Shown here piece after piece: positions 1,057 to 52,100 of a DNA stretch of 64,000 nt. Source of the DNA: Iphione sp. A-MEVVRFRX5 (Eukaryota). The notes beneath the pieces are model-generated. The model did not search any database and had not been told where the DNA came from. It worked only from the letters and a program-made list of their open reading frames with translations. The DNA lies in assembly GCA_976226885.1 (NCBI GenBank), contig OZ320320.1, forward strand, positions 67,828,001 to 67,892,000. The letters run 5' to 3'. Position 1 is the first letter of the stretch, and each line of letters starts with the position of its first letter. The translations under genes were made by a program, and so were the position numbers.

Positions 1057-1886
1057 GCTACTGAGCGTATCAGGGAACGTTTGCTCCTGCGGTGGTCGGT
1101 TGATTCCCCGCACTTGGGCTGGGCTCCCCTCGCACCTCCTGGCGGCCGGGGTGATACACTGCCGCTGCAGCAAGTCAAGGTAGGAGCCACCGACGTGCCT
1201 CCTGGTGGCGGGGGGTGATGCAGGACCCCACGGGTAGGTTCCCCGCACTTGAGTCGCACTTGTCCGGCCTCCCGCTCTTCGCACGTCGCCTAAGCGAAAC
1301 CCCTCACGTCGAGCAATCCTTATTTCACCAAAGCGAGGGGTTAATTTGCGGGGCTGGAATTTACGTGGGGTTTGGCCTGTTCCTCGCCCAAGTGCGAAGG
1401 TCAAGGTCACTCCTCCCACGTAGGGTCCGGTCGATCGCTTCGAGGAATTATCCGTTCCCCGGTGTGCAAATTGCCCTTGCGCCTCGCACAGGAGTCCTGA
1501 CTTGGGGCCGCGCACAAAGGCTTCCTCTGCAACATTGAAAAGGGCGCCAACGGACTTTTCTTCTCTGTTAACCGGTCGGGCGTCCTCCTTCCTCGTGAAT
1601 TTTCCTTCAGGGCTCGTAGTTCAGTAACGCATGCTGCAGAGGGCGCCCCCGTCACGTTTCCTGCTTGGTTGATGCAGTCTCCATGAGATGCCGACACTTT
1701 GCAGGTTTTTTGCTTCAGCCGTTCCCTGCACGGTGGCAGCACCCCTGAGTCGCACCACGCTTCGGGGATACGCATGCCCGGTGTCGTTTGACACGGGGAG
1801 TGACTCGTCGATGGCATGACGTGCGAATTAATCACCGCACATGGTAGGCTTGTTTTAGGTTTCTCCGCACTGTCCAGAAGTCGCCG

Positions 1887-22300: not shown

Positions 22301-25300
22301 GTTGTTATCTTAGCAAAAAAAGAGAGGACCTATTAGAGGAGGGGGAGGAGTAGATACCTGCAGATTTTTGTGGCTCTTTCTAATGATAGATTTCTCCATT
22401 TGATTGTGTGATACATTTGCTGAATTCCACAACACTTACAGTACTGAAATCATGTATCAATTGCTTGCCTTTTTGTATCGGAGAGTCAATGTTATGCATG
22501 TACACGTTAAAATTTTCACATATCGACCGACTGGCATTTGGGCAGGCAGATAGGCAGGTGGTAAAAAGAGACTGTCAGATGAGAAAAGTGTCTGTTGTTA
22601 TATATATGGCAACGATATTTTAAAAAAAATCTATTTTGCTGTGTGTCCACCCTACACGCTTCCAGCCGGGCAGTGCCATCAGCAGCAGTGCTGGCACCAG
22701 CAGCCACTCTTCGCGCTCCTCCAACCGTGCTCGTACTCGCCAGTACCGCACGGTGGCGCACACGGCGCAGGTCGACGAGTCGCTCTTCGGTGAGCCCAAC
22801 CGCGACGCCCACCGCCAGCAGCTGCTTGAGAAGAAATGGCGCCAAGAGGCGGCCTCTCCACTCGAGGAGGAGGCACAGAGGCGGAGCGCTGGTCGTCAGA
22901 AGAAGGACAAGAAGTCAAAGGAAACTGTCCAAGTCATCACCAAGGATCTCATCCGCAATCTCATGTAAGCCCCAGAGTTCATGATAGTATAGAATCTGGT
23001 GTAGATGAGTTATTTTGTGCTGCATACAGTGTAAATTTTTCTAAAGGTCATTCCTCTCATTCCAGGTAGTGGTTACTATTTTCATCTTGAAATTGTCATC
23101 AGTTACAGCCAGAGCCAAACTCCCTTCACCCAAAAATAGGAATCAAGACTAACATTCCGTAGCTAAAAGAAAGAAGCGCTTTTTGTGTTTGAACTTATGG
23201 TATTTGTTTTATGAATTTGTTGTACAGTGTGCCCTCTGAAGACCCGTCTGGACAGTCACTGATACTTCCCAGCTATGAGTTCTACCGCATCCGTAACGCA
23301 GCCCGCATCCTCACTGACGAGGATAAGAAGCACATGGCAGAAATGCACAAGATGGCTAAGGAGGAACAAATGGTGAGTTTAAACAGGGTATCCAGACGAG
23401 AGACTTTGGCAGTAGGGAGCTGTGGAGTTTAGATAAGTAACTCATGGGGGGGGGGGGGGTCATGCAGTTTATATGCTCCGTTTGGCTAGATTTACCTACG
23501 TTTAATTTGCTGTACACGTAAATGTGTAAGGAAAGTATGTTGTAATTGACCCATTGCGAAGAGATTGAAGAAACTGGTAGTACAGACAGATTTTTCACTA
23601 ATTGTGACGTAATCATGGAGGACCAAAAAAGTGACCCCAAAATGGTTGACAATTTCTTGCATTTCAAAGTTTGAACACAAATTTCTCATTAATTCCTTGA
23701 TAGATTCTCATCTAACTTGGTAGACATATAGATATTGTACGCCCCGATCGAAGAGACATAACGAAGTAGTACGTTTCCGAAGTTTATTGCATGAAGTGCA
23801 AAACATGAATGACAATGGTCTCCGCCTTGAAGCGATATTTATAGTAAACTGTAAAACTCTGCCCGGAGTCTAGACACTCCGCCCCAAATCTCCGCTAACT
23901 CCGCTAACTCCGCTACTCCGCCCACACTGCTCCCTTCTGAAAAAGGCTCGGACCCCGAGCCCACATAACTGTATGCAAGCTGAATAAAGAACTTGTCAAC
24001 AACACTGTCTGAACTTATCTAAGTCAATACGTAGAGAACAAGAACTAGAAGGAGCATGTACTTGCTCCTAAATGCTTCCTGAGTTGGGAGGGCATGTGCT
24101 TGCCCTCCCCTTAGAGAGCTTCACTTGGAAGTCTTCCTCGATGGTAAGGTCCACGTGGTCAGGATCCGCTTGACAGAGTTCGAAGAAGGACCGGGTGCAG
24201 CGGGCGCGAACACCCGCCACCTCCCGGCCCAAGGTCTGCACCCAGGCCTCCAAGGTGGAAGCGTCCTGCGGAGGGCTCCGCAGGAGCAACCGAGCTGCTT
24301 GACGAACTGTCACATGGTAGGAGTCTGTTCCAGCTGACACCGTGGACTGTCCCTTTGCTGACACTAGCCGCCACCCCAAGGGTGCGGCCACCAGGGGCGT
24401 AACCAGCCGGCCATTAGCCCAAAGTCGTACTGCCTCCGGAATGTTAGTGTCCAACAGGACTAACTGCCGCTTGGCGCCGGTCCCAGGGGGAAGGCGCCCA
24501 GCCGTTCCAGGACCGGCCACTGGGGTAGAAGGTAGGGGTGCCTTCTGCTGGCCCGGTCCCGCAGGAGTCGAGGTGGCGAGGGGGGACACGACTGTCCCCC
24601 CACCCAAACCACCGGCGTGGTGATGTTCGCTGTCCTCCCTCCCGGCCTGAGAGAGAGGGGGCTGATCCGGACGTCCCGGGGGTGCCGGGGGGATCACAGG
24701 CTGCACCGGAGGGGTATCCGGCGCCACTCCTGTGGGAAGACGATCCGTACTGACCACCGGGCCAGTACCCGCGGGTCCTGCTGGGGTAGGGAGATGACCC
24801 GCGCCGTCGTCGCCGCCAGCGTCGGGCGGAGCGTCTATGGGCGGAGTGATGTTGGGGAGCTGCAGCGAACTCCGCCCCGATGTCTCCGCCTCCGCTGAGC
24901 CGCCCTCCGCCGAGCTCACCGGCCCCGCGGGCCCCGCCGTCGTCGTCTCAGGATGAGTAGGAGGTGGGGGTCCCGCCGGTGCCAACCCCGTGGATTCTTG
25001 GTCTCCGGCGGCCTCGACCGCTCCGCCCGGTTGCTCCTCCTCCTCCTCCGCCGGCGCAGGCTCCGCTGAGTCTCGTCCCTCTGCCAGCTCCGCCAGGGTC
25101 CGTACGGCCTCATCGATATCTCCCTGGGCGACCTCAGCACCACCGGACGAGTCTAGTACCGCGTATCGTACTTGTCCCACGGTCGGCTCTCCTTGTTCGG
25201 TCTTCTTCTCCGGCCCAGGTTGAGGGGGCGCCGCCTCTTCCTCTTCCTCGCTCGAGGTGAGGACCACCACTTCGCCACCCTCATCCTCCGGCCTCGTCCA

Positions 25301-28300
25301 GTCTAAGCCCAGCCGTGCGTCCAGGTCCCTGGCCTCCTGGCTGAGGGTCGAGTACGATGATCCGGGCGTAGCAGATGACGGGGTGCCCAGGATTCCTGCG
25401 GTGGTGGCGGCTCGAGCAAGGGGGGACATCGTAGCGGTGAGCCCCTTTCCTGTAGTAGCCTTCCTCTTAGCTGGGGTCGGCGTCGCTGCTTCGCCTGCAG
25501 ACGAGATGGGGGAGGTGACTGGCTGATACCCCCCCGGCCCGCTCTCATCTCGCGTAAGTCCAAATCGTGGCCGGGCGTCCTCACATGGGAGTGGGTATAC
25601 CAGTGTGGTAACCCCTCCCCTTTTCCTTTTTCTCGACCCCCGTGGTGAGGCCGGGCTCGCGCCGCCCCCGGGGTGCTGACATTGGAGGTGGGGGACGCCG
25701 TCTGCTCTTCCTGGGCCGCCCGTTTGCGCTGCCTAGCTTCACATGCGGCTGCCACTCGCTTCAACTCAGGGGTGAGCCCTGTACTGGCCGGGGAAGAGTC
25801 CAGCCCATGCAGCCGTACATCCACTGACCGGCCTCCAGCGGAGCCCAGTCCTGACGGTCCAGCACGAGGGGAGCCTGGGGTCCCCTGCACGGTCGAGGTC
25901 ACAGCTTCCCCCTTGCTCCCTCGCGGCCGCAACTGCCGGTCGGACGCCTCCGTCGCCTCCTCCTCTTCGCTCTCCCCTTCGTCATCGTCCTCCTCTTCCT
26001 CCTCTTCAGATTCCTCCACCGCGGCCGGAGTGGTGCCAGAAGAGCTACTCCGTTGCCGCTCTCGCTTGGGACGTGGAGGAACGGGGTCCCCCCTCATCAT
26101 GGCTCTCTCCTTGGCCCGCTCCCATTCCTCAACTCGCAAGAGCCAGCGTTGCTCTTCCAGCCTCCGTTGAGGAACCCTTGCGTCGCGCCCCGTCTTCAGA
26201 TCGACGAAGCACAAGTCTGCATCCTGCCCCCACTCCAGGTAGTGGTCCCCGTCGGTGGAGTGTTGGGCCTTGAGGTGCCGCCGGAGGTCGTCCCGGCGCT
26301 TGAAGATGGCCCCGCGACAGCGAGGAGCGGGGCAACGCCGGCAGAACGCGAGTCGTCGATGGGTCCCCATGTGCCGCCGCAAGTTGCCCGGTCGGTCTGT
26401 CTGGTAGCCACAAAGGTTACACCCGTGGCTGGTGTCCCCGGTCTCGGCCATTTCCACGTTGTCGGGGGCCCCTGGTTCTGGTACGCTCCGCCCTGGGTGT
26501 AGAGGCCCGCCTCGTAACAGCAAGTCTGGTCGTAGGAACGGCGGGGGGGTGGGCGGTCTCCGCTGGCACGCCTCCGCTGTTGTCGTGCTCCGCCCGGAGC
26601 TCGTCTGCACGTCCCTCGAGGGCGAACTCCGCCGGCCTGGCCTCGGTTCGCTCCGCCCGGAGAATGAAGGGCTGCCTCGTAAAGGCAAGTCCGGTCGCGG
26701 GAGAGGCGGTCTCTGTCGGTGCGTCTCCGCTGTCGTCGCGCTCCGCCCGGAGCTCAGCTGCACGTCCCTCACGGGTGAACTCCGCTGGGCCAGGGAAGGC
26801 GATCTCCGCTGCTCTTGCTCCGCCGCTGTCGCACTCCGCCCTGGAAATGACCTCTCCGTTGGGGGAGCGTCTCGGTGAATGGATTGAACAGCCCACTCCG
26901 CTGCCTCGCGCTTATAAGCACCCGCCAACAGCTCCGCTAGTCTCTGATTGGCTAGCGGTTCGCGCGCTCGCCGCTCATTGGTCGACGCTGGGCGGAGTGC
27001 CGTCAGCCCCCTTTGAGCCCGCCCTGCGGTCTCCGCCGAGCGGAGAGGTTGGCTAACTCCGCCCGGAGACAGCTGCTGGGCGGACTCCGCCCGGGACTTG
27101 TCGCCTCGCCCGTCTTGGCCCCAGGGCGGTCGCCGACCTTCCAGCTGCCACTCTCGGCAGTGCCCTTCCCAGAGCTGGGCGACCAGGGTCTTGGTGGCTT
27201 GACCTCCATAGCGCTGGCGCAGCTTCCGGCATATTCCTCGAAATTTCCACAGTGCCAAACCGAACCGGTCGCGGCGACGGGGGCGTCCAGTCTTCTTCGG
27301 GGGAACAGTCTTCCTCGCCGTACGCCGGGGGCCTAGCATTCCCCGCGTCTGTCGATGTAGCTCCCGCAGTTCCTGGTTCAGCATCTCCGCCCAACCCCGG
27401 GGAATGCGACCCTGGGTCGGAGTCGGCCGTTCACGGGCGGTGCTCTCATCCCCTTCGGGGCCGGTTACCCGTCGCCTGTACCACCGAGGGGGTGGCACAC
27501 GGGCTGAGTGAAGTTCCATAGCGTCCTGACGAAGGACGTTCACTCGGCCGATCACGTCGGAATCTTCCCTCGCTTCTGTGGCAAACGCAGGCTTCAAGAG
27601 ATCGGCGTGGACAATTCGTTGTTTGCTACCTCGCCCAATGCGGTATACCACCGTACTGAGTCTGGCTCTGACCTCCCACGGCCCCTGCCAGCGGCACTGA
27701 AGCTTGGGCGAGCGTCCCTTCTTCTTGATAGGCGAGTAGACCCAGACGTTGTCACCAGCTCGATATTCCTGATGCCGCACCTTCTGATCGTACCAGTCCT
27801 TACGCCGCTCGGCTGCTCGCTGAAGTTGTCGCCGTACCGTTGAATGCGCCGTCACTAATCGATGGCGGACAGATTCCACGTATCCGTGCACACTCACCTC
27901 TGGTTCCCCAGGCGAACCGACCATCAACTCGACTGGAAGGGTGGTTTCCCGACCCAGGGTCAACCAGTTGGGGGAGAACCCCGTCGTGCGATGAGGAGTA
28001 GCCCGGTATGCTGCCATCACAAAGGGTAGTTGTTCGTCCCAGTCCGACTGGTCCTCCTTGACAACCTTGGCCAGCATTCCTGTCAGTGTCCGGTTGAACC
28101 GCTCCACCACCCCATCGCTCTGAGGATGGTAAGGAGTGGTCCGGGTCTTTTGAATCCCCAGCAGTCGCAGGAGCTCCCGCATCAGCGCAGCGTCGAAATT
28201 TCTTCCCTGATCAGAATGGAGAATGCGAGGAGGTCCGAACCGGCATACTACCTCCCTGAGGAGATGGCGAGCGGTCGACTCTGCATCCACTTCTGCCGCG

Positions 28301-31300
28301 GGAATCGCCTCTGTCCATTTCGTGAAGTGGTCGGCGACCACAATGATGTAGCGGTTACCTCTAGGAGTAGTCGGAAACGGTCCACACACATCCACAGCCA
28401 CTAACTCCCAAGGTCCAGGAGCCAGCCGGAGTTGCATGGGCGCTCTTCGCTTGCGGGCAGGGTCCTGACGACGCTGGCAATCGAGGCACTCTTGATTCCA
28501 GCGACGAACATCACGCCCGAGTCCGGGCCAGAAGTAGCGTAGGCGAACTGCTCCTTCCGTCTTCTCGGGCCCGAGATGCCCCCCGAGAGCGCCTCCATGC
28601 ACCTCCTTCCAGACTGCCCACCGCAAGCTCTCCGGAACGTATGCCTGATGGCGCAGGCCCCCGTCCTCCATACTCCACTGCCGGCACAACAGTCCACGGG
28701 ACACACACAGTCGAGGCCACTCATTTTTCAGGCATCGCGTCTCATAGTCATCTTCCGGTACGCGTTCGGGTGCCTCTCCTTCTTCCTCCACACGACGGCG
28801 CAGGTCCCGCGTCAGGTCATCCTGTTCTTGAGCCTGCCTCAGCCCACCTTCGTCCGAACGAGCCTCAACTTGCAAGGCGGCCACTTGTCCGGTTAGGGTC
28901 TCGTCATCCTCTTCCGGCTCCCTGCCACACTGTCGGCACCTGGTCCTCGAAAGACTATCCGCATTACCGTGACGGCGGCCGGGTCTGTGCTCAATTTCCA
29001 CGTCGTAACAGTACACTTCCTCTAACCACCGGGCTAGCTGACCCTCGGGTTCCCGGAACCGGCATAACCACCGCAAAGAGCTGTGGTCCGTACGGATCAC
29101 CACCTTCCGGCCCCCGACGTAAGCGCGGAACTTGCGTAGGCCGAATACCACTGCCAGCAACTCCTTACGTGTGACGCAATAATTCCTCTCGGCCTTCGAA
29201 AGACTCCGGCTCGCGTACGCTAGCACCCTCTCCTTGCCGTCTTGTTCCTGCGATAACACAGCCCCAATTCCAGCGATGGAGGCATCCGTGTCTACCGTCA
29301 TGAGTCCTTCGGCTCTGGGATACGCCAAGATAGGGGAAGACATCAGCCGATTCTTGAGTTCGTCGAACGCTGCTTGGCACGCGTCGCTCCAGCGGTATTC
29401 TTCCCCCTTCTCAAGGAGCTGGTGAAGAGGTGCAGCCACGCTGGCGAATCCTTCAATAAAGCTCCTATAGTACGAGCAGAGGCCGATGAAACTCCTGAGC
29501 TCCGTGACACAACGGGGGGGCGTCCAGTTCTGGATGACTCTCACCTTCTCAGGGTCCGGCTTCACTCCTTGGGCTGACACCCGATGGCCAAGATAAGCCA
29601 CCTCTCTCTGGAAGAGCTGGCACTTCTGCGGCTTAATCTTGAGCCCCGCTTGGCGCAGCCGACCGAAGACCTCCTCGAGACGCTCTACCATTTCCGGAAC
29701 CGTCCGGCCGATGACAATCACATCGTCAAGGTACACCAGGCAACTTCGTCCCACTAGGCCCCGGAGTACCGCCTCCATCAGGCGCTCGAAGGTGGAGGGA
29801 GCGTTGCACAGTCCGAAGGGCATCACCCGGAACTGGAACAGCCCCCCAGGCGTACACACGGCTGTCTTCTCCCTGTCTTCCGGACGGACCTCCACCTGCC
29901 AATAACCGCTAGCCAAGTCGATTGCCGAAAAGAACTGCGCCCCCGAGAGTGCATCCAACGTGTCATCTATTCGGGGCAGTGGGTATGCGTCCTTCTTGGT
30001 CACTTGGTTGAGCGCCCTGTAGTCGATGCAGAACCTCCAGGAATTGTCCTTTTTCTTGACTAGGACGACCGGAGATGCCCAAGGGCTCACGGAGGGTTCC
30101 AGTACCCCTTGCCGCACCATCCGTTCCACCTCTTGCCGGACCACTTCTCGCTTCCCTGGAGGTAGCCGCCGAACTCGCTGCCGGATGGGCCGGTGACCTT
30201 CCACCTCTATCCGATGTTGCACCTCGCTTGTGCACCCCAGTGGTTCCCCATCCTCCTGCAGGCAAGCTTGGTTTCTTGTCAGCATCCTATGGATAGCCTC
30301 CCGATCCTCCGAATCAAGTTCCTCTGGTAGTCCCGACATTAGGGTGGCCACCGCCGAACTTCTCTTCTCACTTCCTCCCTCTGCTGTGACGCTGAGGGCC
30401 GCACCGAGCTGTTCCGGGTGGTCGACCAGTTGGGCTCTCCCGACTACCGTCCCTCTCCTGAGGTACCGCCCGTCCGGGCCAGCATTGGCAACTTCCACCC
30501 GCCCGGACTGACTCCCTGCCTGGCATAATGACCCTGCCAGTCGCAGCCTGGACCGTGCCTCCCACTCGGGGGAGGGTTCCACCAGCACGGCATCCCCGGA
30601 GCCTCCAAGCTCCTCCCACGCCACGGAGACCTCCCGTGTGGTGTAGCCGTCCAGCTGGCAATCCTCTGCCAATGCCACCTTGCACCCCCAACTGTCATCT
30701 TCCTCCGGCACGCTCACTCTCAATGTGGCCTCACTAGTGTCCACCTGGGCCTTCCAGCGACGCAAGGTGTCCAGGCCAAGAATGGCAGGACAATCAATGC
30801 TGGCCACCCAGGCATCAATTTCCAACTCCTCCTCCGCAAACTTGGCCGTGATGTTGGTCTTGCCTTTCACCCTCAATGGGCTCCCGTCTGCACAGAGGAT
30901 CCTTCCTTTAGTCGGGGCGAGCTCCGAGGCGCCCACGGCCCCCGCCGTTTCTTCGGAGAGGAGCGTCAGGGACGCCCCCGTATCCACCAACCACGGCACC
31001 TTGTATCCTCCCACCTCGCTGACCAGGATAATGTTGGCGGCAGGCGTCCTTTCCCCCTGTAGCAGCACTTCTCGCGTCCCTTCCAACTGCAGAACTCTCA
31101 AATGCCCCGCCAGCCCGTCACGCGTATGCTTCTCAGGTTGGGCCGCCCGCTCTACTGCTGAGGGGCGGCCGGTTCCCCGTTTCCCGAGGCCGTAGAGGGG
31201 GGAAGTTTGGGGCACTCTCGTTTGAAGTGTCCTGGCTCCCCGCAATTGAAGCACTTCTTCGGGCCGGTCTTCTTGTTGCTTCGCTCCTCTCCTTCCCGGT

Positions 31301-34300
31301 TACCCACCAACTGCATCAGTAACTTTTCGAGCCGTTCCAATGCCGCTGAGTTGGTTTCCACCTTTCCACTGGGCCCCGATCCAGCAGCAGGCAGGGGGGC
31401 CGCCTCTACCTTGTGAACCTTCTTCGGAGCCGCCCGCTCCTGCTTGTTCTGATAATACGACTCGGCGACCTGAGATGCAGAGAGGGCCTCCCTGAAGGTT
31501 GTCACCCGCGCCTGGGTGACCCATTTACGGACCTTTTCGTTTGCGAGGGCCCCAACGTAATATTCCCGGCACATCCTGTCTTTCCAAGGCCCTTTTGCTT
31601 CCGGATAGGCCAATTGCACCAACCTCTCCACCTCGTCCGCCAGGTCTGCCAGGGCCTCCTCCTTCCCTTGCCGACGCCCCTTGAGCTGCTGGATATAAGC
31701 GTCGGTTTGGTGCTTGGACTGAAACCTCTCCGACAGCGCCTCCACCAACCTGGCATAAGCCCCGTCCTCCGCAACGTCAATTCCAGACCCCCGCAGCACG
31801 GCTCTCGCTGACTTTCGCAACACGATTCCCAGTTGTAGGGCCTTCTCCGCTTCCGTCCACTGATTGGCCTTGGCGACCAGCTCGAAATGTTGCAAAAAGT
31901 CTCGCAGTGGTGTGCTGCCATCATAGGTGTCCGGCTTCACCTGAGACTTCCGGGGCTGCGGGTCCGGGCGCAGCGCCGCCCGCAGCTCCTGTACGAACCC
32001 ATGCCAGAGGGGTGGCTCTGACGACACCGCGGCCTCTTCCTCTTCACCAGTCTGCTCACCGTCATCCTCGCCGGGTTCGCGGTCATTCACTTCTTCTCCT
32101 TCGTGTCCCGAGGCGCGTGGGGCTATGGAGGGGACAGGTAACTGATGTCCCTCTCCGGCCCCACCAGAACGTGGGGGATCTCCGCCAACCGATTCTCTCT
32201 TGGCCGACTCATCCGCTTCGCTTCCCCATAGCTCGTCAGCTGCGTCGTCCGGTAGCTCCGCCCGGAGCTTGCCGAACTCCGCCCACTCGGCGGACTCACC
32301 CTGCTCCGCCGAGTGCTCCGCTCGCCGCTCCGCCGAGTCGGCCTCCGCCGCTGCTCCGGTGGCGGAGATCCCACCGCTGCCACCAATTGTACGCCCCGAT
32401 CGAAGAGACATAACGAAGTAGTACGTTTCCGAAGTTTATTGCATGAAGTGCAAAACATGAATGACAATGGTCTCCGCCTTGAAGCGATATTTATAGTAAA
32501 CTGTAAAACTCTGCCCGGAGTCTAGACACTCCGCCCCAAATCTCCGCTAACTCCGCTAACTCCGCTACTCCGCCCACAATATACATGTTATCTTGGATCT
32601 GTAATATCTCTGTGGGCAGGAAAAGTAGAAATGTAAAATGTTGACGAGGTTGATAGTCTGGCTAGTCATGACCTCGTCGTCACCAGTTAGAGCATGCAAA
32701 TATACTCTTTGACGTCATGCTCATCTGGTGTTTTGTAAAATCAACTCGGCGATAGGTCAATTATTTTAGAATTCCTGACAACGACATATAGAGACAAACT
32801 CTGGGCAAAAAACAAATTTGTTACACAGTGTGTGAGTGAATCTTTCACCTGCTGTTGATCCGTTCTATAATCTTAGGGACCCAGCAATAAGACTTATAAT
32901 AGGCAAGACAAAGATGGGCATTATTTGCTATTGATGAGAAAGGTTATACCATTCAATCACTTCTGATGAGGAGGATTACCATTTGCTCACAATTTAGATG
33001 ACAGGTTATTTTTCTCTTTCGAGCAGTGTTATTTTTTTATAACATTTGTATCATTATCCTGTAACACATCAACCTTCACTTGTGCTTTCTACGTCGGCCT
33101 CTATTACTACATGGCTGTTTCTCTGTTTGGGTTGTCCCCAGAGTGCTGTCGCAGATCGCAAGCAGTACATGAAGCAGCATGATGTCGACCGGGTACAGAA
33201 TGAGAAGCTGTCTGAACTGGAGGAGGAGGAACGTGAGAAGAGGGAATACCTCAAGGAGAAGGCTAACGCTCAGCGTCAGGAGCAGGAGGATGAAATCAAG
33301 AAACTCAATGAGGTGAGTTCTGCCGGTCACCGGACCCTTCACTTGAGGGATGAGTGAAGCATCCAGACGACCTTTTCACCCTAAAGTCACTTAATCGCAG
33401 TTAGTTTGAAGCTGTTGTTATTTGTGATAAAACAGACCCGATATTTTTGGACCATGCAGTCCGTGTATAATGGACCAAGGAGGGGAGCCACTCTGGAAAC
33501 ACTGATGTCCGACCATCCTTCGGGATCTTAATTGTAGGTCTATCTGTTTGTAAACCATTTAGTCAAATGCACTGACTTTTAATATGATATCACCATATGT
33601 GGACTCTTGCTGCTTTAATTGGTGCTGTTTGAGGTGAACTAAGGGTAGCTTTTCTTGACTTAAAAAGTATCTGTCCTACCACTAGGAAGCGAAGAAAGTC
33701 ATACCTGAGTGCCCAGCTCTTAGAAGTTCATGGTAGAGTAGTAAGCAGCGGTCGTAGTGGCCAGCTGGTTGTTCGGAGGTTCAAGTTCTTATATTTTGTT
33801 CCCCAGCTAATCCTTAATGCCAAGTGCCACGCCATCCGTGATGCTCAAATCCTAGAGAAGCGCCAGATCAAGTCAGAGCTGGTGGAGGAGGAGCAGCGGT
33901 TGGACGCCATGATGGAGGCAGACAGGCTCAACAGCATCCAGGTAGAGGAGAGCATTAACCAGCGCCGCAAGCAGGACCGCATGGTAGGAGCCATGAAGGT
34001 CATGGAACAGATCCAGGAGAATGAGCAGGTACATACATTCTATCATATAGTCTATCATATGCTGTATCTGTCATACATTCTACCAATACATTGTCACATA
34101 TTCTTACATACATTTCCATGCATTCTTTTTATGATTCTATCTTGCATACATTCTATCGTACATTACGTCATGCATTCTGTCATACATCTGTCTCCATCAT
34201 GACATTCAGTCGATCCATGTCCCAACATACATTGCATGATCATCAGTCCAAAAGAAATGAACCATCTTAAGGACTTTGTTGTTTTGAGGTGTCAGTCTGT

Positions 34301-40148: not shown

Positions 40149-43100
40149 TCACAGTTCGGTGAAGAAGCGCATGACAGCCCGCACGATGCCGATGTCATTG
40201 TAGTTGAGGTAGCAGAGTCCTCCAAATGCAGCCATTGACATAAGCAGCAACACAGGCTTTACTAATGGCCGAAGGTATTCGCCATGTACATAGTCGGTGG
40301 TCACTCCCTGGAAAGCCCTACAGAGAGAAAGACACCAGTGTTAACAAAGTTGAATAAAGTTGAAATAGCAGCATCCTCGAAATGCAGCCATTAACATGGA
40401 TAACAGCATCGGCTTTTTGAATGGTTGAAGGTTTTCACTGGTGTACACAAGGGATACTCCCATAAAAGCCCTACAGAAAGAATGACATCAATGTTCTTAA
40501 GGTGCAGGTGCGGAGACTTCCAAATGCAGCTATAAATATAAGTAGCAACATGATGTTTACTAATGATCAAAAGTATTCACTATGTACAGTGGTCACTTGA
40601 TTAAAAGCCCTTCAGAGAGAAAGATGATCATCATATTCAGGTTGTGCAGTCTGTTGAATATAAGCACTAAAATGAACTTTCACAGAGCTGAGCTTGGAAA
40701 ACAACAGACTCATCTCCCTATTTTTACTTCTACTTAAGTGTGCTTTCTTATCATGCAAGCCTTGTAAATATCCTTATTAGATGAGAACACTTTGTCATTT
40801 TCTTATTATGAGAGCTGCTTGTCAGCCACGCTGATGTTGCACGACGACATGAAGTCCCAAATTTCAAATGATTATGCTTTCTGGTAATCAGGAGCCTGAG
40901 ACTTTCAAGATCAACATGCTTAAACATTACTTAATCAGGACATGAAAGATGACAGCAGCTGACACTGCATAGCTGAGGGCAGCTGATGGAAAAGAGGAGC
41001 ACTGCTAGGAAGATGGGGATGAGATCAATGGTTAACCAGCATTTTTAAACATAACTCACCAGTGGACATGAAGTACGACGGCAGCTGACACTGTATAGTC
41101 TAGGGCAGTTGATGGAAAGAGGAATGCTGCTGGGATGACGGGGATGAGAGCGAAGGCTAATACCCGCTCTCCCTTCCAGTGACTGATGGCAGGTGGGTGG
41201 TCGCCTTCTGAAGGGTCAAGGACAATGAGTAATTAAGGAAACATAACCTGTCTGGTAGTGCAATCAATATTCTGAAAACTGCCGAGTCTGCATTCTTTTT
41301 AATTTATCCAAATACATTTGAACGGAATAGAAAGCATCTGTGGTCCAGAATGAAAGTAATGCGCATTTCATTATCAAACGGGTGAACATGTTTCTCCACT
41401 GATGATAAAAATATATACTAACACATTATAAAAGCGTTACTGTTCTTTCAGTCTACAGCTTCCCTTCCCTTACCTGCTGGTCCATATATGCGTGCATCTC
41501 GTCTCGGCGTCACTGCTAGCGTCTTGGAGGGGCCAACAGATGCTGCTAGTGGCGCCATCCGGCGGAGCAGCTGGGGACCTGCCACTCGGGACAGGTGACT
41601 GGCTGCAATATTTTAACCGACTATGAAGCATGTGTGTTTTTTGAATATATTTATACATGATCTATAATGCCAAATACACAATATAAACAGTCCAACAGTC
41701 TGTCAGACCACGATATGCACGGCTGCCCCTGTTGCTCTAGCTATATCTAATTGTCGTGCTAATTCCTGGTAAATTATTGCAACTCAGCAAAGGGAAGGCA
41801 TAGCCAACTATACAAACAGCTATTGTTCAGCCTCGCTCTCGATAATGTTAGTGCTGAGTTCAAAGTTAACGCTCACCCAGTAACCACAAGTCAACTTTTT
41901 TCTGTGTGGGTTAACTTTTATTCCCTCAGAACTAATAAATCAGACCAAGGTGATCAAGTGATGTTCAGAGGTCTGACTGTCCTTAGAGTAGCTGTTGACT
42001 ATTTCTCCATTCAGGGTCGACAACATATGCCGGTCAAAGTTATGAATTCCTGAGCCAAATGATCCAGATGGATAAAATTTGAAAAAAGTTATGGTTGAAC
42101 CCTGGTCTAGTCTAGTCAAACAGCCATTCTGTTTGCTGCAATCAAATCAGCGATAGCATGCTCTGTGAAGGTCGTCCAGGCCTGGGAGAAGGGTTACTAT
42201 TATGTATGACTACAATGAATTCGATCTGGTAGATGTAGGGTAGGGAACCCAGTTGTTTCAGGCCGGGCCAGTTGATTTGGGCCCACTGTACACCACTCTC
42301 TCTGTGAATGATGTAGATGACATGACATCCGGGGGGGGGGGGGGGAGTTAGCTCAGTGGTAGAGCACTGGTCCACTGACTGAGAGGTCACAGGTTCAATC
42401 CTGGGCCTAGGACTCTTGATCAAGACCAGACAGATTTACTGTAGCCCTAACCCAGAGTGGTCCACAACTCGTAAAAAAAAGCTGTGGGTATATAGGATTC
42501 TGTCCTCCATGTACAAAAAGATCTCAGAAACCTATTTGAAATAAGAGTAGGGAGGAACTTGGGGTATTCTGGTCTCTCAATTCTCAATAAAAGATGGTAG
42601 TATGCTACCCCAGGAGGATATGGAAGAGCCCTGTCATATGATAGGTGAATATCTAGTTCCTGGTAAAAGATACAATGAAATGAAATCAAATGAAATACCC
42701 TCTTTGGAGCTAAGTTATCTATTCTGTGGCATTTGTGACCTAATTTCAAATCAAAACACAGAAAATTCACGCTAAAATGGCATGCTTCTGTTAATGTTTC
42801 CCATTAGGAAGTTGCGTGGAGTAACATATTGTTACGACCCGATCTAAGCATTGCGAATAAACCAATGTCCACACAGAAGTAAAATAGACGTGTTATTTAT
42901 TCAAGAGCAAACCGTGAACTGAACGGTGTCCCCGCACGCACTCCTATTTATACACCAGCCATAACGTGCGGGGTAACTAACTGCGGAGACATTTACTCCT
43001 CAAAGATCGCGGAGACAAGTTTACTCAGCATAAATTGCGGGGAAGTACATCCCCGCACAACACTGCTCCTCCTCGTAAAAGACTCGGCCCCCGAGTCACT

Positions 43101-46100
43101 TTTAAGAATACCGAGAAATACATCCCAGTAACAACATTATCACAGTAAAACAGAGAAGTACATCTCTGGAGCAATCGAATTTCCAACTCTGAATATAGGG
43201 AAGTACATCCCAACCATAAAAAAAGGGTAGCTTATTAATCTGAAGAATCTGGGAAGTACATCCCTGTGTCAAAATGCAAGAGTGGTGGGACTTAAGGTCC
43301 AAGTCTCTGTGTAACTCACTGAACTGGAAGAACGTCCTTGTAGTCTAGCACCAATATAACTTATTTACATAGGGTGCCCATAGGGCACAGTCCGTAATCC
43401 TGGGACATCCGTTTCGACTCAGTTATCGTCTGTTCGCCATTTCCACAGTCCAACACAGCCGGTCTCACTCTTAATCCTCCAACCCGCCCCTTATGGGGGC
43501 GGTTGGGCCCTGGTCCCCGACAAAGGTCTCGTCCGCGGACAGGGAGGCCACCCCGTCTTCACTGTTCGTCACCATAACATCATTATAGGAGAGCCTCATG
43601 TGGGCTCCACCTCTGGCTCGCCTCGCTTGCCACCAGGTCCACACACTGGTCTGGGCCACATCCGGTTGGGGACTCAGTTCAGCAGAGTGGTCAAAATGGA
43701 CCTGGGGCCTTGCTGAATGTAGGCGAAACCGGATCCTCGTCTCGGCTGTCCTGATGCGCCAACCAGCTGGCGGCGCTTCCCCAAGGGTGAGGGCCCGACC
43801 GTAGGCCCACTCGATCAGCTCTTGTTCTTCCTCAGCAGACAGCACTGGCCACGGTGTTGGGGCCGTCGCTGCCCGAGGGGGACCGGCCCCACGTGGGCCA
43901 GCCCCTCCCTCACCTGGGCCCGGGGGAGCAGCACGTGGGCGAACCTCGTGAAGAACCTCTTCTTGCTCGCGGCGTGGTCCGGCCCCCGGCCCCGGAAGGT
44001 CATCGCGCGGGTGACGCTCGTGAAGGACGTCCATCTGGTCGCGCCGTGGTCCCGCCCCTGGTGTCGCTGTGTCCCGCTCGGGGGACTGGCGGCCGGCCGG
44101 ATCACCCTCCCCCCCCTCCTCCTCCGACCCATGGGCGCCGGTCGAAGGGGATAGGGTGGGCGGTCGAGGGCCAGGGGGGACCTCCTCGTCGTCGCCGCCC
44201 TCTTCTTCTGGTCTGACACCCGGCACGTCGTCAGCTCCGGCTTCCGTCTCTCCGAGGCCCAATAGTGTGGCCACGGCCTCGTCCACGGCTGCTCCCGTCG
44301 GTTGGTCGCCATTCCGGTCACCTCCGGTCGTCTGCCACGTCGCCCTTACCGGTGGCCTCCTCGGGGCCGATGGCCAACGTCCCCGCCCCCCCGGCCGGGG
44401 TAGTGGGCAGCGAGGGTGGTAAGTCTCTCTCCGAGAGGGTCACGGCGAAGACCCTCCCGGATGGTGTAGAGGTGGTAGGCTCCTCTCGTCGCTCGGACTG
44501 GCCCAACCCAGCCTGTCGGATGACCTCGGCCGCCTCCTCACTCCAGTCCGTGACAACTGACGAGGGGGAGGGCAGTGCTGAAGAGGGCTGGCTCCCGGCA
44601 CGGGGTGATGCTCGGTGCCGGAACCCGAGTCCCAGCCCCCTTCCCTTGGGTGCGCCGCAGTCAGTAGGAAGGAGCCATCCTCTCCCCGGGGTCGGGGGCG
44701 AGCTCCCCGGCAGGGACACTCGGGGGGAGGTGGCGGCAGGCAGTCCTCCGGCCCCTCCTGGGGCAACCTCTTGCTGGCGGTGGCGAGCCTCACTGAGCCG
44801 GGCGGCCGCGATCAGTTGCGGCGTGAGGCTGGGTGTGGATGCCCGGCTACTCGAGTCTAGGCCCCAGAGCTGAACGTGCGTCCCTGGTCCCGGCGACAGC
44901 CCCGGGCTCCCTGCACTCGTCCGTCCCTCGGGTAGGCTGACCGCTGGGCTGCCGGTACTGGATACAACAGGCTTCTGTGGCACCGTACTCCCTGCCTGTC
45001 CGGGGTCGGGGGTAGTCTGGCTGTCATCCCGCTCTGGCGAAGGGGTGGCCGGTCGCCCCCGTGCGGCGGATGCTCATCACGGCAGACGTTTCCGGGGAGG
45101 AGGGTTGGCTGAATCGCTCTCCAAGTCGCGAGGTGATGACGTCATCTTCCGCCGCCCCGTCGTCCGTTGCAACCCCGAGGTCGAAGGCTGAGGAGACGCC
45201 GCCCTGCCGCTGGAGCCCGACGTCACCACCTGTAGCTGGCCATCATCGGACGAGGTCAGCTCCTCTTCCACGTCGTCGCCTTCTTCCTCCGAGTCTTCCT
45301 CTTCCACCATCGACGCCGACGTAGTGCCCTTGGCTCGCTTCTTACTTGGCACGTCCTCCCCGCGAATCATGGCCAGCTCTTTTCTTCTTTCGAACGCCTC
45401 AAGTTCCTTCTCCTGTTCGAATTCCGCCTGCCGGAGGGGAGGGACTGGCACCACGGTGCCCGTCAACGGGCCTGCCTCTGTCGAAAACCTCATGAACTCC
45501 ACCTCGACATCCTGCCCAATCTGGAGGTAATGGGGCTGGAAGTCTTGGTGGACCCCTCGAAGGTGGCGCCGGAAGTCGTCCCGGCGCTTGAAGATCTTCC
45601 CCTTGCACCGCGGCACGGGGCAGCGCCGTACGAAACCCTCCGCCTCATGCACACGGTAATGGCGGATCAGGTTGGCTTTCCGCCTAAACACCTTCTGGCA
45701 TCGGCTGCAACGCGGCGACGGCTTCCTCGCAGGCATCTCTCTCCGAAGACGGCGACACGCGGGGCAGGTAGTATCTTCTCCGCGCGGGGACGGTACCGTG
45801 CGGGGTTGGACCACCCCGCCCGGGGTAACTTTCTCCGCGCGAGGACTGGGTACCCCGCCTGGGGCTCTGCTATGGTTATCCCCGCCCGGGGATGCGGCGA
45901 CGTTCCTGTCAAGGGTACTCCGCACCGGGGTCGCGCAGACCACTCCGCTCGGGGCGTTGGTCGACTCACTGAAGCTATCCCCGCCCGGGGATACACACAC
46001 GTTGATAATGCTTCGGCCTGAAACAATTCGTCCAGTCTTTGCTTCCTGTTGTAGGGGTACAGCTTGTTCGTCACCTCGATGGCGTCTCAACACAAGTGGC

Positions 46101-49100
46101 GGTCCCCGCGCGCACCTTTCCTTATATACGCCGCCACTACTCCGCAGTCGATTCTGATTGGTTGATTCAGATCTCGCGGTCAACGAGACAATGTTTCTCC
46201 GCGCGTAGTGCGGGTATCTGGTCTTTGCCGCCTTCTCTTGGTGCGGGGTCGTGGACTTTGCCCCTCCTTCGTGCGGAGACTTTGTCTTCGTCGATATGCG
46301 CAGTCGCTCTCCCCGCTCGTGGTGCAGGGGCGTGGACTTTGCCGCTGGGGCTCGACGCGGGGTCACGGACTTTGTCGTCCTCTCCTGCGGAGACCTTGTC
46401 TTGGTCGATGTCCGTGGCCCCCCCCCCGCTCTTGGTGCGGGTACCTAGACCCGAGAGATCGGCGGTAGCGCTCTTCGTTCAACTGGTTGAACTCTCGGAA
46501 AATTGCAGTGGTGGTAGACTTCCCGATCCTCTCTTCCATCTTGCGGCGTACTCCCTTTATCTTCCACATTAAGCGGCCCAAACGATATTTAGCGCCTTTA
46601 TCATTGAGGGACATGACTCCAGCCAAGTATGCCTTGCTCAGTAGGGGGGCTACTAGTTTAGCCCAGGCTCCTTCTTTGTTATTCCTTGGTTTCCACCTCT
46701 TATCCTTCTTTTGGGCGAGACAATCCTTCTTCTCTCCCGGAGGCCTGTACCACCGTGGGGGGGGGCAGTGTCCGGGCCGGAGCGTCAGGGCTTGCTCCGG
46801 TCCCTCAAAGGTCGATCTAGGAGGGGGGGGCCAGAGGTCCTTCTGTCCTCTCTGCTCCCCCGCGAAACCTGTCGTGGTCCCTCCTCCTGACCAACCCCCA
46901 CTACCAGTCCCCCCTCGTGGTGCCTCCAGCTCTTCCATCTCTTCTCGCCACACCGCGTGGACCACCCCTATGACGTTATCACTCGGGGCGGTTATTGCTG
47001 GCTTCAGTAGGTCAGCATGAACGACTCGCCGCTTCCTTCCGTGCGCGATGCGATAAATGACCTGAGACAACCGACTTTCGATCACCCACGGGCCGTGCCA
47101 ATGACGCTGTAACTTTGGGGAACGTCCAATCTTCTTCGTGGGGTCTAGTAGCCAAACGGAAGCTCCTTCCTGATATACGTGCTCCCGCACACGTCGATCG
47201 TACCAATCCTTTTGTCGCTCGGCACACCTCTTGAGCTTCTCCCGGGCGAGGCTGTGAGCTTGGATTAACTCCTCCTGCTGTCGATTGACGAATTCCCCTC
47301 GGGGTTCCGAGTCTTCTGGCGGCTGTCCAAACATCAACTCTGCTGGCAAGGTCGTCTCACACCCCAATAACAAGCTATTGGGAGTCAGACCCGTCCCACT
47401 GTGAGGGGTGGCCCGATAAGCAGCCAGCGCGAAGGGGATCTTCTCGTCCCAATCCCCCTGTCCTTCTTCCACCAGAGCAGCCAACATGCGGTTCAACGTA
47501 CGGTTAAATCTTTCCACCACTCCATCGCTCTGGGGATGGTACGGAGTGGTCCGGGATTTCTCTACGCCTAGCATCTTCAACAACTCGCGGAAGAGCGCCG
47601 ACTCGAAGTTCCTGCCTTGATCGGAGTGGACTATCCGGGGAGGGCCATATCTGCACACTATCTCCTTGAGTAACACGCGGGCTGTGGTCTCTGCCGTAAA
47701 ATCCGGCACTGGAAAAGCTTCCACCCATTTAGTAAAGTGGTCAGCCACCACGAGGACATAGCGGTTCCCTTGCCTGGTCTCTGGAAAGGGGCCGCTTACG
47801 TCTACTGCTACGAACTCCCATGGTCCAGCGATGGGTCGGGCCATGAGCGGACTCCTCTTCTTCACCCCCGGATCTTTGGTCTGTTGGCAAGTCAAACACT
47901 GCTGTCCCCAGCGCTCCACATCACGTCCTAGGCCTGGCCAGAAATACCTGATGCGCAGAGCACCTTCAGTCTTCTTCACTCCCAAGTGTCCTCCCAGAGC
48001 TCCGGAGTGCACCTGCTCCCAAACTTCTTGCCGTAACTCTGTAGGGACATAGGCTTGAGGGGTCTTGCTGCCATCCTCTCTGTCAAACTGCCGGACAAGG
48101 ATGCCATCCTTCAGTGTCAAACGAGGGGTCTCCCCATAGAGGCACCTCTCTTCCCGATTGCCCGGACTGATGGAACCATCCTGCTCCGGTGCGCGGCCCT
48201 GTTCCAGTGCTTCGATGATTTTTCCTGTTAGTACCTCCCGCCGTTGAGCTGCTCGGAGTACTCCTTCACCTACTGGCACCACCCTAACGGCACACACCTC
48301 TTCGGTTGCTTCGTCTTCTTCTTCCTCATGCCGACCACACTGAAGACAGACCTTCCTTGACAAGCCGTCTGCGTTCCCATGTAGCCGCCCCGGGCGATGC
48401 ACAATTTCTAAGTTGTAGGTGTAGACCTCTTCTAGCCATCGGGCTAACTGTCCTTCCGGTTCCTTAAAGTTGCAGAGCCAACGAAGAGAGTTATGATCGG
48501 TACGAATGCACACGTTCTGGTCCCCCAGGTATGGCCGAAATTTCCGCAGTCCGAACACCACCGCCAGCAATTCCTTGCGGGTGACGCAGTAATTCCTCTC
48601 AGCCTTCGTCAACGTCCGGCTTGCATAGGCTAGGACCCGTTCTTGTCCATCTTGGTCCTGGGAGAGAACAGCTCCGATCCCTCCTGCTGATGCGTCTGTA
48701 TCGAGGTGGAGTTGCCCCTCAGGCCGCGGATACCCCAGCACCGGTGCGCTAGTCATTCGCTTCTTGAGCTCTTGGAAGGCCTCATCGCATTGGTCGTCCC
48801 ACCGGAACTCTGCATCCTTCATCAACAGCTTGTTCAAGGGCGCGGTGATGGTAGCGAAAGCCCGTACGAAACTTCGGTAGTACGAACAGAGGCCAATAAA
48901 ACTTCGTAGCTCCGTCAGGCAACGAGGGCGTGGCCAAGTCTGTATGGCCCGGATCTTTTCAGGGTCCGGCCCTACACCATCAGCTGAGACCCGATGTCCC
49001 AGATACGCCACTTCCTCCTGGAAGAGTTGACACTTGCTTGGCTTCACTCTCAGTCCCGCCTGTAACAGCCTGCTGAACACCTCTTCTAAGCGGTCGACCA

Positions 49101-52100
49101 TTTCTTCCACTGTCCGCCCGATCACAATCACGTCGTCCAAGTAAACTAGACAAGTCTGTCCGTCCAGTCCTCGCAGCACTGCCTCCATGAGTTGCTCGAA
49201 CGTAGAGGGGGCATTGCAGAGGCCGAACGGCATCACAGTAAACTGGTACAACCCGGCAGAAGTACACACCGCTGTCTTCTCCCTGTCCTCCGGTCGTAAC
49301 TGTACTTGCCAGTATCCTGCCGCGAGGTCAATGGCCGAGAAGTACCTCGCCCCCTGCAGGGCATCCAGGGTGTCATCGATGCGGGGGAGAGGGTAGGCAT
49401 CCTTCTTGGTAACGCGATTCAGGGCCCGGTAATCGATGCAAAACCTCCAACCACCATCTTTCTTCCGGACCAGGACTACCGGTGATGCCCAAGGACTGGT
49501 TGATGGCTCCAGAACGCCCTTCTGTAACATGTCGTCCACTTCCTTCTGTACAGCCTTGCGCTTGGCCGGAGGCAGTCGTCGCACCCTCTGACGAATTGGA
49601 CGGTGCCCCTGAGTGTCAATATTGTGGACGACCACTTCAGTTCGTCCTAACGGCTCGTCTTCTCGCTGGAACACCTGGCTGCAGTGCGTCAACATGTCTT
49701 CGATGCACTGTCGCTGGGAATCGGATAGCGAGTCCGGCAAGGTTTCCAACAGTCCAGCCAGCCCGCGGGTGCTTCCTTCTTCGACCACTCGTGCCCGTCC
49801 GCATTCTTCTTCTTCTTCTTCGCCTGAGACTGGGGTCGCCACTCCTATGACTGTCCCCTCTCTCAACCGTATCCGCGTAGAGCCGGGGTTACAAAGCTGC
49901 AGCTGACCTCGTGTCACTCCTGTCTCCCACAGCGTCCTAGCTACACGGATTCCCGACCTCGCCTTGAAGCTCTCCGCGCCTTCCACTAAGACTTCCTCGG
50001 CGGCCCTGGCGGCCCCAACCAGCGCCGCCTCCACGTATCCTACGCATCCGCCTTCCACCGCTGTGTCCTCTACCAGACAGACTCGCCGTGACTCGCCCTC
50101 GCTGTCCTTCGGCACCCTCACTCGCAGCTCGGATGTAGAAGCGTCCAACAACGCCCTCCAATGCACCAAGGTGTCCATGCCCAGAATTCCGTCGCAGTCA
50201 ATGTTAGCAATCAGGACCTTCACGGAAACACACAGGGACTCGAACTGTACTTCCACCTCCGCTCGTCCTCCCACCTTCAGAGGCGTCCCGTCTGCACACA
50301 GCACACGTCCTCCTACTGAAGCTCGACCCTCAACGCCCACTGCTTCCGCAACTTTTTGACTCAAGATCGTAAGGGAGGCGCCCGTATCTACCAGCCACTT
50401 CACTTTTCTTCCTCGAATCTGGCTACTGAGGATGATGCCACGGCCAGTCCGGTCTGGGTCTCCTTCCAATACCACTTCCTGGCACTCGTCCTCCCCCAAT
50501 CGCAGTTGCCACAGATGATCCTCAGCAGGGTCTTCAAGTGTGGTGACGGCCGCCCTCCCTACTGCTGGGGAGCGGCCGCTGGCCCGTTTCCCGAGGTCGT
50601 GGCTGCAACCGATGTCGCCCCTTTATACTGCGGGCAGTCCTTCTTGAAGTGTCCCGGGTCATCACAGATGAAACAGCCCTTCTTCTTTCCCTGCCTACGT
50701 GCTCCTGTTCCCGCGTCTTGGCGCTTCACCAGCTGTCCCAGCAATTCTTCAATACGGCGCCACGGTTCGGCCGCTCCACTGGACTTGCCTTCGACGCTCT
50801 CCTCTCTGTGTTCAGCCACGTGTACCCGCTTCGGCGTGCGTTCTCTTTTGCTGTCATAGTACGACTCGGCCAGTTGAGCTTCCGACAGTGCTGTACGGAA
50901 GGAGGTGACCCGTGCCTGTGTTACCCACTTCCGCTCTTTTTCGTTGGCCAAGGCCCCAAGGAAGTACTCCCGACACATCCTGTCCTTCCACTGGCCCGTG
51001 GCCTCGGGATAGGCCAAACGGACCAATCGTTCCACATCATCGGCTAGGTCGGCCAGCTTCTCCTCCTTCCCCTGCTTCCGATACTTCAGCTGCTGCATGT
51101 AGGCATCGATCTGATCCGCCGGCTGGAACCGATCACGTAGGGCCTGGACTATCTTGTCGAACGCTCCGGGCTCTTCCACATCGACTTGTGCGTTACGCAA
51201 CGCCGTCCTTGCTGCCTTACGCAAGGCCACTCCAAGTTGTATGGCCTTCTCTCTGTCATCCCATGCGTTGGCCGCCGCAACCAGTTGATAATGATGGAGA
51301 AAGTCAGGCAAGGACGTCGTTCCATCGTAGGTGTCCGGTCTAATAGAAGTGCGACGGGGTCTCTCTGAGGGTCGGGCCACCCGCCTGAGCTCGTCAACCA
51401 GGTCCTGAATGAGGGGGTCCTCTTCCTGCCTCGGCCGGGCTTCCTCCTCATCACTGGACTCCTCTTCGGAAGATGCTACAGCAGCGTCTTCTTCCTCCTC
51501 TTCGAGTTCACGGGCTCTAACTGCTCGGGGTCGAGGTGCGGGAACGGGGGTAGCTGTTATCGCTCGCCTTTCCCCCTCCCCGGCACCTGTAAATGGGGAT
51601 AGGGTCCTTCTCCTCCTAGCGGTCTCCTTCTCCTCAGATCCAAGGGTACAAGCCGTGTCAGCACCGAACCTCGAAGGAGCCTTCTTCCCCCCTCTGGGGA
51701 AGTTCTCCGCTCGGCCTGACGACCCATGCTCTGCCCCTGGGTCCTCCGCCCCAATTGCGGGGAAAGGTGTCTCCGCAATTTCTGAGGGGTAAAGATGCTC
51801 CGCATCTTTTGAGGAGTAAGAGTGCTCCGCACGATCTGAGGAGTAATAGTGCTCCGCACGATCTGAGGAGTCGGTATTCTCCGCACCAGAAGGAGAGTCG
51901 ATCCCACCGCTGCCACCAATGTTACGACCCGATCTAAGCATTGCGAATAAACCGATGTCCACACAGAAGTAAAATAGACTTGTTGTTTATTCAAGAGCAA
52001 ACCGTGAACTGAACTGTGTCCCCGCACGCACTCCTATTTATACACCAGCCATAACGTGCGGGGTAACTAACTGCGGAGACATTTACTCCTCAAAGATCGC

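Follow-up and report, generated by a model that had tools for sequence, protein, structure and literature searches.

The usual view of LTR retrotransposons is that they draw on the transcription factors of their host, and a self-made DNA-binding activator acting through a cascade of two promoters is characteristic of complex retroviruses. Proteins that act, or have been proposed to act, on the repeated motifs of the very element encoding them include Spm TnpA, VANDAL VANC and Botrytis brtn. TnpA and VANC belong to plant DNA transposons, brtn is an antisense fungal gene, and to our knowledge none of the three is a sense, pol-embedded C2H2 cassette. Ty3/gypsy integrases may carry C-terminal accessory domains (chromodomain, PHD and others), and we know of none with its own promoter and start codon or with cognate LTR sites. 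Foamy viruses possess an internal promoter with basal activity from which the regulator Tas is made, and Tas activates both promoters, according to the accessible parts of the source (PMC7390438). In the Oikopleura elements Tor3b/4b, the internal promoter Penv, mapped by 5'RACE and lying in pol for Tor3b, drives env (PMC4402516, available in part).

The present study concerns a window of 64,000 nucleotides (the whole stretch of DNA that was analysed, positions 67,828,001 to 67,892,000 of contig OZ320320.1 of Iphione sp. A-MEVVRFRX5), which holds three Ty3/gypsy elements, E1, E2 and E3, all on the minus strand. Coordinates are window positions, and features lie on the minus strand unless stated otherwise. 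Like the foamy virus system as set out in the accessible parts of PMC7390438, these elements show a predicted second promoter in the coding region near the 3' end, a putative DNA-binding regulator and candidate sites for it in both promoters; dependence of the LTR on the regulator is a foamy virus feature (same source), which we infer for the gypsy elements. Foamy viruses, as described there, have env, with the promoter inside it, a separate ORF for Tas and two Tas targets that are little alike, whereas the elements reported here, known from sequence only, are Ty3/gypsy, have no env match, carry the promoter in the pol frame, use C2H2 fingers and show the same hexamer in both promoters. They also fall outside the Spumaretrovirinae, in which Pol is made from a separate spliced mRNA, pol of the gypsy elements following gag in an overlapping frame and the tail giving no env-like match in Pfam or sequence searches. 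With Tor3b/4b they share the LTR retrotransposon build and an internal promoter for a downstream gene; what the Tor gene encodes is the glycoprotein Env rather than a DNA-binding regulator, and the accessible part of that report describes no feedback (PMC4402516). With the accessory-domain integrases of PMC6338049 they have in common a Ty3/gypsy Pol in which integrase is followed, in the same frame, by an additional domain. In the literature searched, which left subscription journals, Repbase and bioRxiv supplements outside, we found no description of a retrotransposon-encoded C2H2 self-regulator or of this architecture, and a term search of the accessible text of PMC13524379 gave no mention of zinc fingers.

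Organization of the elements

E2 and E3 show the Ty3/gypsy order, gag and then protease, reverse transcriptase (RT), RNase H and integrase (Pfam matches), together with the TG...CA LTRs, primer-binding site (PBS) and purine tract of Ty3/gypsy LTR retrotransposons. The 5' LTR of E2 (32386..32578) contains six GCGGAG, TATAAA, a further GCGGAG and TCATT, without CCAAT, and is followed by the PBS-like TGGTGGCAGCGG, presumably a tRNA-Leu match. The gag frame (31155..32435; capsid-like, with a CCHC knuckle) is overlapped by the pol frame (25306..31299), which encodes protease, RT, RNase H, integrase, a linker and a C2H2 pair. The remaining tail (24071..25732) ends in a conserved folded domain of ~115 aa (about 24130-24480), and the 3' LTR (23734..23926), preceded by the purine tract, is identical to the 5' LTR. 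In the window copy the frame is broken in the tail, compared with 2,410 codons in intact copies. Extra GCGGAG clusters were seen in the tail coding region (24875-25093) and at the start of gag (32185-32348). E2 is inserted antisense between exon-like frames of a plus-strand host gene (22624-22965 and 35065-36264, plus strand) with TPH-domain matches, which we take to be CFAP45-like.

In E3, the 5' LTR (51920..52154) carries GCGGGG and GCGGAG sites and TATAAA, again without CCAAT, and the 3' LTR (42830..43064) is 98% identical to it. The tail, in two further frames (43474..45073), includes the conserved C-terminal domain (about 43520-43850). The first-pass annotation had placed the internal promoter inside the pol frame. 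This is true of the E3 family, in which many other copies have one frame of 2,381-2,382 codons, and not of the window copy, in which alone the pol frame (46366..50622) ends at a stop at 46363, before the promoter is reached, and the fingers are read in a different frame.

A search of the genome (1.18 Gb) for relatives yielded many one-frame copies, of 2,410 codons in the E2 family, 2,381-2,382 in the E3 family and 2,170-2,440 in other families, figures that rest on 150 scored out of about 3,000 candidates per genome search; in one family the frame reaches 2,608 codons. Across families, the single frame of 2,170-2,600 codons in intact copies comprises pol, linker, two C2H2 fingers, a disordered tail and the folded C-terminal domain, so pol, linker, fingers and tail are normally in one frame. 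Read in the pol frame, linker and tail are free of stops, of which the other frames contain several; these copies were chosen for long frames, though the modal lengths from the genome searches agree. The families are abundant and young, with identical LTRs and many near-identical copies; their relatives in the databases reach 47% identity at most and carry no classification. A tree of RT and integrase with 16 rows, restricted to families of this genome and rooted at the midpoint with no outgroup, separated clade A, which comprises the E2-like and E3-like families, from the E1-like clade B and from clade C; L057, L059, L069 and L026, which have no RT in frame, were omitted. At G000:C2:83935985-83940874, an open frame of 3,444 codons contains two finger matches 4.5 kb apart, which suggests an internal duplication that kept the frame. 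The window also contains a short, dispersed repeat family (7822-7905, 16779-16964 and 37050-37770), probably a small non-autonomous element.

A promoter-like array conserved inside the pol frame

The motif positions given by the first-pass annotation for E2 and E3 are correct. In E2, a distal CCAAT (26977..26981, read from 26981), also present in the L008 and L058 families, lies 30 nt before the proximal one (GCCAATCAG, 26947..26951, read from 26951). Upstream of the latter stands GCGCGAAC (26958..26965), and downstream follow a GCGGAG (26932..26937), a predicted site of the element's own fingers, TATAAG (26911..26916, read from 26916) and the Inr-like TCAATCC (26881..26887) with the predicted start A at 26885. 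The corresponding array of E3 (46093..46175) consists of a CHR-like TCTGAA (46171-46166), CCAAT at 46161, GCGGAG at 46145, TATATAAG at 46128 and the Inr-like CCACTTG (A at 46097). The layout is that of a Pol II promoter, TATA lying ~31 nt before Inr and CCAAT at about -60 to -100 with conserved spacing; of 12 families, only about half show an exact Inr.

Chance does not readily produce this arrangement, a looser CCAAT-TATA composite being found in 0/3000 (E2) and 13/3000 (E3) Markov-1 resamples, and GCGGAG occurs 20 times in E2 and 8 times in E3 against resample means of 2.1 and 1.1. The pattern CCAATCAG-N6-8-GCGGAG matched the genome 1,083 times, compared with once for the reversed control. 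TATA, which is absent from the search pattern, was found at +35 in 28 and at +52 in 2 of the first 30 loci. Among 20 loci picked for differing spacers, 7 of them shared with the first 30, it lay at +35 in 16 and at +52 in 3, the last locus having neither TATA nor fingers. Conservation in other family members, on which the first-pass annotation had made its claim depend, was also seen in 40 loci picked by protein: the composite accompanies 23/24 finger-1 helices of the N3 type (22 exact, 1 with CCGAT) and 0/13 of the R3 type, while one remaining locus was mis-parsed yet carries the composite and two gave no finger call. In 30 protein-picked clade C copies, TATAAA is kept in 29 and CCAAT in 27.

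Identity at fourfold sites between lineages is 26-39%, i.e. synonymous sites are saturated. None of 130 invariant twofold columns has an A/T-ending codon in all six lineages, and the promoter AAT is nonetheless kept in 6/6, a count biased by L058 and L107, two of the six, which were reached via the CCAAT pattern; TAT is kept in all four clade A lineages, against a baseline of 3/162. CCAAT always occupies the same reading frame. The distance from it to TATA is 35 or 52 nt across lineages, the intervening GCGGAG lies at +14 or +16, and TATA is read as Y-K in clade A and as I-K in clade C. Because TATA and GCGGAG change frame between lineages with saturated synonymous sites, the constraint acts on DNA. 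By this sequence comparison, the array of E2F/CHR-like, CCAAT, site, TATA and Inr candidates is conserved at the DNA level, and the internal promoter is very probably real.

The E2F-like member of the array, GCG[GC]GAA, is found in E2-like families, in L057 and in clade C, 14 nt ahead of the (proximal) CCAAT; both it and GCGCGAAC resemble the E2F consensus. E3-like families have TTTGAA, TTCGAA or TCTGAA in its place. TTTGAA and TTCGAA are listed as CHR elements, with CCAAT usually upstream of CHR, in the accessible part of PMC4176359. Since the order of hexamer and CCAAT is the reverse of the usual one here, and the change between TTTGAA and TTCGAA is synonymous for Phe-Glu, cell-cycle gating of the internal promoter is only a lead.

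The leader and the edge at the predicted start

Downstream of the predicted start, the leaders of 12 families contain 1 ATG in 2,939 nt, compared with 51 in 6,000 nt upstream. They range from 24 to 434 nt in length and lead to an in-frame Met 5-12 codons ahead of finger 1. The sole upstream ATG, in L057, opens a 67-codon uORF whose stop overlaps the finger Met as ATGA. The ATG-free leaders of E2 (26452..26885, 434 nt, GCGGAG-rich) and E3 (45737..46097, 361 nt) have the lengths originally reported, and the first ATG has, as claimed, a purine at -3 and a position 9-10 codons before the first Cys: G at -3 in both, 10 codons at 26451 in E2 and 9 codons at 45736 in E3. In both elements the ATG-free stretch begins upstream of the predicted start, the last upstream ATG being at 26978 in E2 and 46539 in E3.

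The families L009-L012 combine four divergent finger cassettes, which start at the internal TATA and stop about 300-700 nt short of the 3' LTR, with one near-identical gag-pol backbone. Identity among them is 92-99% from the LTR to about 200 nt before TATA and 45-81% across the cassette; in ungapped bins it is 12-20/20 up to Inr and 0-10/20 directly after. This drop at Inr indicates that cassettes have been swapped on one backbone and that constraint stops at the predicted transcript start. Such a pattern would be expected if template switching took place where a subgenomic RNA has its 5' end. No 5'-truncated copy beginning at the internal start was found among 30 clade C loci, two of which start ~23 nt upstream of TATA.

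Zinc fingers, their predicted sites and the LTRs

The predicted start codon and the two fingers occupy 26260..26451 in E2 (helices RPGNLRR and RRDDLRR) and 45548..45736 in E3 (RKANLIR and RRDDFRR). The pair is supported as C2H2 by Pfam, by the residue spacing C-x2-4-C...F-x5-L-x2-H-x3-5-H, by a beta-beta-alpha structure model and by basic residues at helix positions -1/6; its PDB sequence matches are CTCF, ZFP568 and Zif268, and its linker has 8 residues and is not TGEKP. An acidic stretch follows the fingers. A finger module table assigns RSDDLVR to GCG, RSDNLVR to GAG and RSDKLVR to GGG (PMC5260015, accessible in part), and from their helices the fingers are predicted to bind GCG-GAG.

Finger 2 is R..D..R in 16/16 tabulated families. 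For finger 1, clades A and C show [RKH]..N..R, and clade B shows N/I.YR..R/K. In LTR and linker, the commonest triplet after GCG is GAG in 7/10 N3 rows and comes second to GGG in L009, L010 and L012, which have an N3 helix, yet contain GCGGGG as often as GCGGAG or more often. Among R3 rows GGG leads in 3/4, the spectrum of L020 (K at position 6) being diffuse. For the most part, the sites thus appear to switch to GCG-GGG with the changed finger-1 helix. As the N3-to-R3 switch is a single tree branch, this covariation amounts to one contrast with exceptions. The E3-family LTRs and linkers (window 51920-52154; L009, L010, L012) carry clade-B-type GTGCGGGG sites despite their N3-type finger 1, which may reflect relaxed binding or cross-talk with clade B factors.

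Per kb, clade A linkers contain 10-27 GCGGAG and core windows 0-1.9; clade C core windows overlap site-rich sequence and give no control. In the LTRs, TATA and an Inr-like motif are present in 14/14 rows, with a site between the two in 12/14, and CCAAT in none of the 14 LTR windows, L009, L010 and L012 sharing one LTR among these rows. No other recognisable upstream activator motif was seen in the LTRs. The internal promoter has host-type elements and sites, the LTR sites only: as in foamy viruses, putative regulator sites occur in both promoters and host basal elements at the internal one alone. We consider it likely, from finger code and site distribution, that the finger protein binds the element's own sites.

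Element 1 and clade B

E1 (346..1620) is a decayed clade B element with an ATG at 1056, two fingers, GCGGGG-type sites and no conserved CCAAT-TATA. It had been said to follow the pattern of E2 and E3. The ATG-free stretch is there (1535 to 1056), but AAATAAG, taken as a degenerate TATA, was rejected, as it aligns to ACTTTGG in an intact relative. Since AAATAAG is not conserved and 0/13 loci of the clade carry the composite, E1 does not have the promoter of E2 and E3. A shared core promoter for clade B was sought and not found. The clade retains fingers and sites, and a stretch of 148-792 nt without ATG precedes the Met, but CCAAT-TATA is absent.

CTCF-like AG[AG][GT]GGCG motifs, so called from a presumed resemblance to the CTCF consensus, lie upstream of the clade B ATG-free stretch (window 1633-1647; L014-L020 at -446 to -720 from finger 1); by count there are one to three per element, in the same orientation. 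The integrase region of E1 ends in three tandem 216-nt copies (1881-2528).

Non-autonomous copies, the C-terminal domain and relatives in other genomes

Two ~6.1-kb copies, L057 and L075, encode gag and protease and have no RT, RNase H or integrase. They belong to a high-copy family (at least 150 matches) in which promoter, fingers and tail are retained within an open frame of 1,350 codons. A family lacking RT and integrase thus retains the cassette, which argues that the cassette is useful without integrase.

The C-terminal domain of ~115 aa is conserved in all clades. It is predicted with confidence as an alpha/beta fold (pLDDT 92) and gave no Pfam or PDB sequence match and no usable ESM Atlas match. 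Its best structural match has a Z of 7.1 with an rmsd of 4.1 over 102 residues, and Foldseek hits are weak, which is not evidence of a new fold. The motif L[WHF]GLD is conserved in clade A tails.

No close relative of the finger module was found beyond this genome, including by tblastn in metagenome scans, two of the searches being weak ones; 150 HMMER matches were rejected as partial matches to multi-finger proteins, and the ESM Atlas returned generic C2H2 clusters. Of 120 integrase relatives from other assemblies, 16 have C2H2-like fingers behind integrase, in many cases directly preceded by a Met, and P0233 has a similar layout of two fingers and a long tail. Among the gypsy Pol proteins with fingers after integrase (P0158-P0235), six end in a C-terminal finger pair that to us recalls the dimerisation fingers of Ikaros/Hunchback; a check of the C-terminal fingers from other assemblies for an Ikaros-like identity gave generic C2H2 matches only.

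Discussion

The reading we favour, and hold to be probable, is that a conserved promoter embedded in pol makes a two-finger protein which binds, and likely activates through, sites that lie in the internal promoter as well as in the LTR, giving a dual-promoter circuit like that of foamy viruses. The fixed array of E2F/CHR-like, CCAAT, site, TATA and Inr elements inside the pol frame would drive a subgenomic mRNA, with basal activity provided by host factors, likely NF-Y and perhaps E2F/DREAM. The ATG-poor leader would direct initiation to the in-frame Met 5-12 codons before finger 1, and the product would be a two-finger protein of roughly 750-850 aa, predicted from the finger code and site-helix covariation to bind the element's own sites. 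The LTR has TATA and sites and no CCAAT, so it would depend on the finger protein, which could close a positive loop leading to full-length RNA. As intact copies keep the pol-to-finger frame open, a Pol-fused finger form is probably made as well. Comparison among families strongly supports what the first-pass annotation had proposed as to an internal Pol II promoter, a subgenomic message for the finger protein and the predicted sites around that promoter; the extension of CCAAT-TATA to E1 falls away. The abundance of these sites in LTRs without CCAAT, an addition of the present study, sharpens the likeness to foamy viruses.

Several observations count against this explanation: clade B has fingers, sites and ATG-free stretches without CCAAT-TATA, some of the sites are preceded by GG (30/145), like Sp1 boxes, three N3 rows have at least as many GCGGGG as GCGGAG, the spectrum of L020 is diffuse, the helix switch is confined to a single branch and the Inr is inexact.

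Activation is preferred mainly because the promoter layout matches that of foamy virus IP/Tas. The same promoter, message and self-binding would hold if the protein instead repressed the element, as a copy-number control, or shielded it from silencing, which is unlikely though worth weighing. A site between TATA and Inr, as in 12/14 LTR rows, is in a position that can repress and so speaks against activation; sites run throughout the leader, E2 has a third cluster in the tail, and motifs of the VVVL/I-acidic type, which we read as SIM-like, occur in 6/16 tails. Repression fits poorly with LTRs that have neither CCAAT nor another recognisable upstream activator motif, with families that are young and abundant, and with the acidic stretch after the fingers.

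It is improbable that the fingers are instead a C-terminal extension of integrase within Pol, targeting or holding LTR ends, while the GC-rich sites serve host factors of the Sp/KLF/EGR type. Linker and tail are indeed stop-free in the pol frame only, and the GG-preceded sites are Sp1-box-like, GGGCGGAG being in our view similar to that box. However, GG is missing from 115/145 sites, families differ in the 5' flank and not in the hexamer, and the hexamer changes with the finger-1 helix. Moreover, the integrase-less family keeps the cassette, and a dedicated Met behind an ATG-free leader would be left unexplained.

Splicing of an LTR transcript, as for gypsy env, is an established route for third genes of LTR elements in the accessible part of PMC4402516, and would reduce the motifs to an enhancer-like role. 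For the elements with the composite this is very improbable, acceptor-like sequences being found in only 4/12 clade A/C leaders, at unrelated positions, and both ATG loss and the conservation edge coinciding with TATA+31; for clade B a spliced-LTR route is possible. Finally, the view that the motifs simply follow from a conserved peptide (N-Q...Y-K) or from GC-rich repeats, which would suit the single frame of CCAAT and the synonymous TTTGAA/TTCGAA, has almost no likelihood given the fixed nucleotide spacings and the resampling controls, and its peptide form was rejected on the rare codons kept despite saturated synonymous sites and the frame shifts of TATA and GCGGAG.

Beyond the favoured circuit, we suggest tentatively, at somewhat less than even confidence, that these families form a widespread, undescribed class of 'complex' Ty3/gypsy elements, which would encode a sequence-specific transcription factor of their own, express it from an internal promoter under cell-cycle gating and use it to switch on a factor-poor LTR, with helices and sites co-evolving, cassettes swapped at the internal start, and non-autonomous families keeping the cassette. 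If this is true, foamy virus logic arose independently outside retroviruses, and the C2H2-tailed gypsy Pol proteins of other assemblies would be further cases. Confirmation of the favoured circuit would mean that a gypsy lineage had evolved a self-made activator together with a cascade of two promoters. The families would provide naturally occurring finger-site pairs, in series, on which C2H2 co-evolution could be tested, and the thousands of element copies and solo LTRs are predicted to constitute a regulon of an element-encoded factor. The timing of a retrotransposon's own activation to dividing or germline cells would thereby become directly testable.
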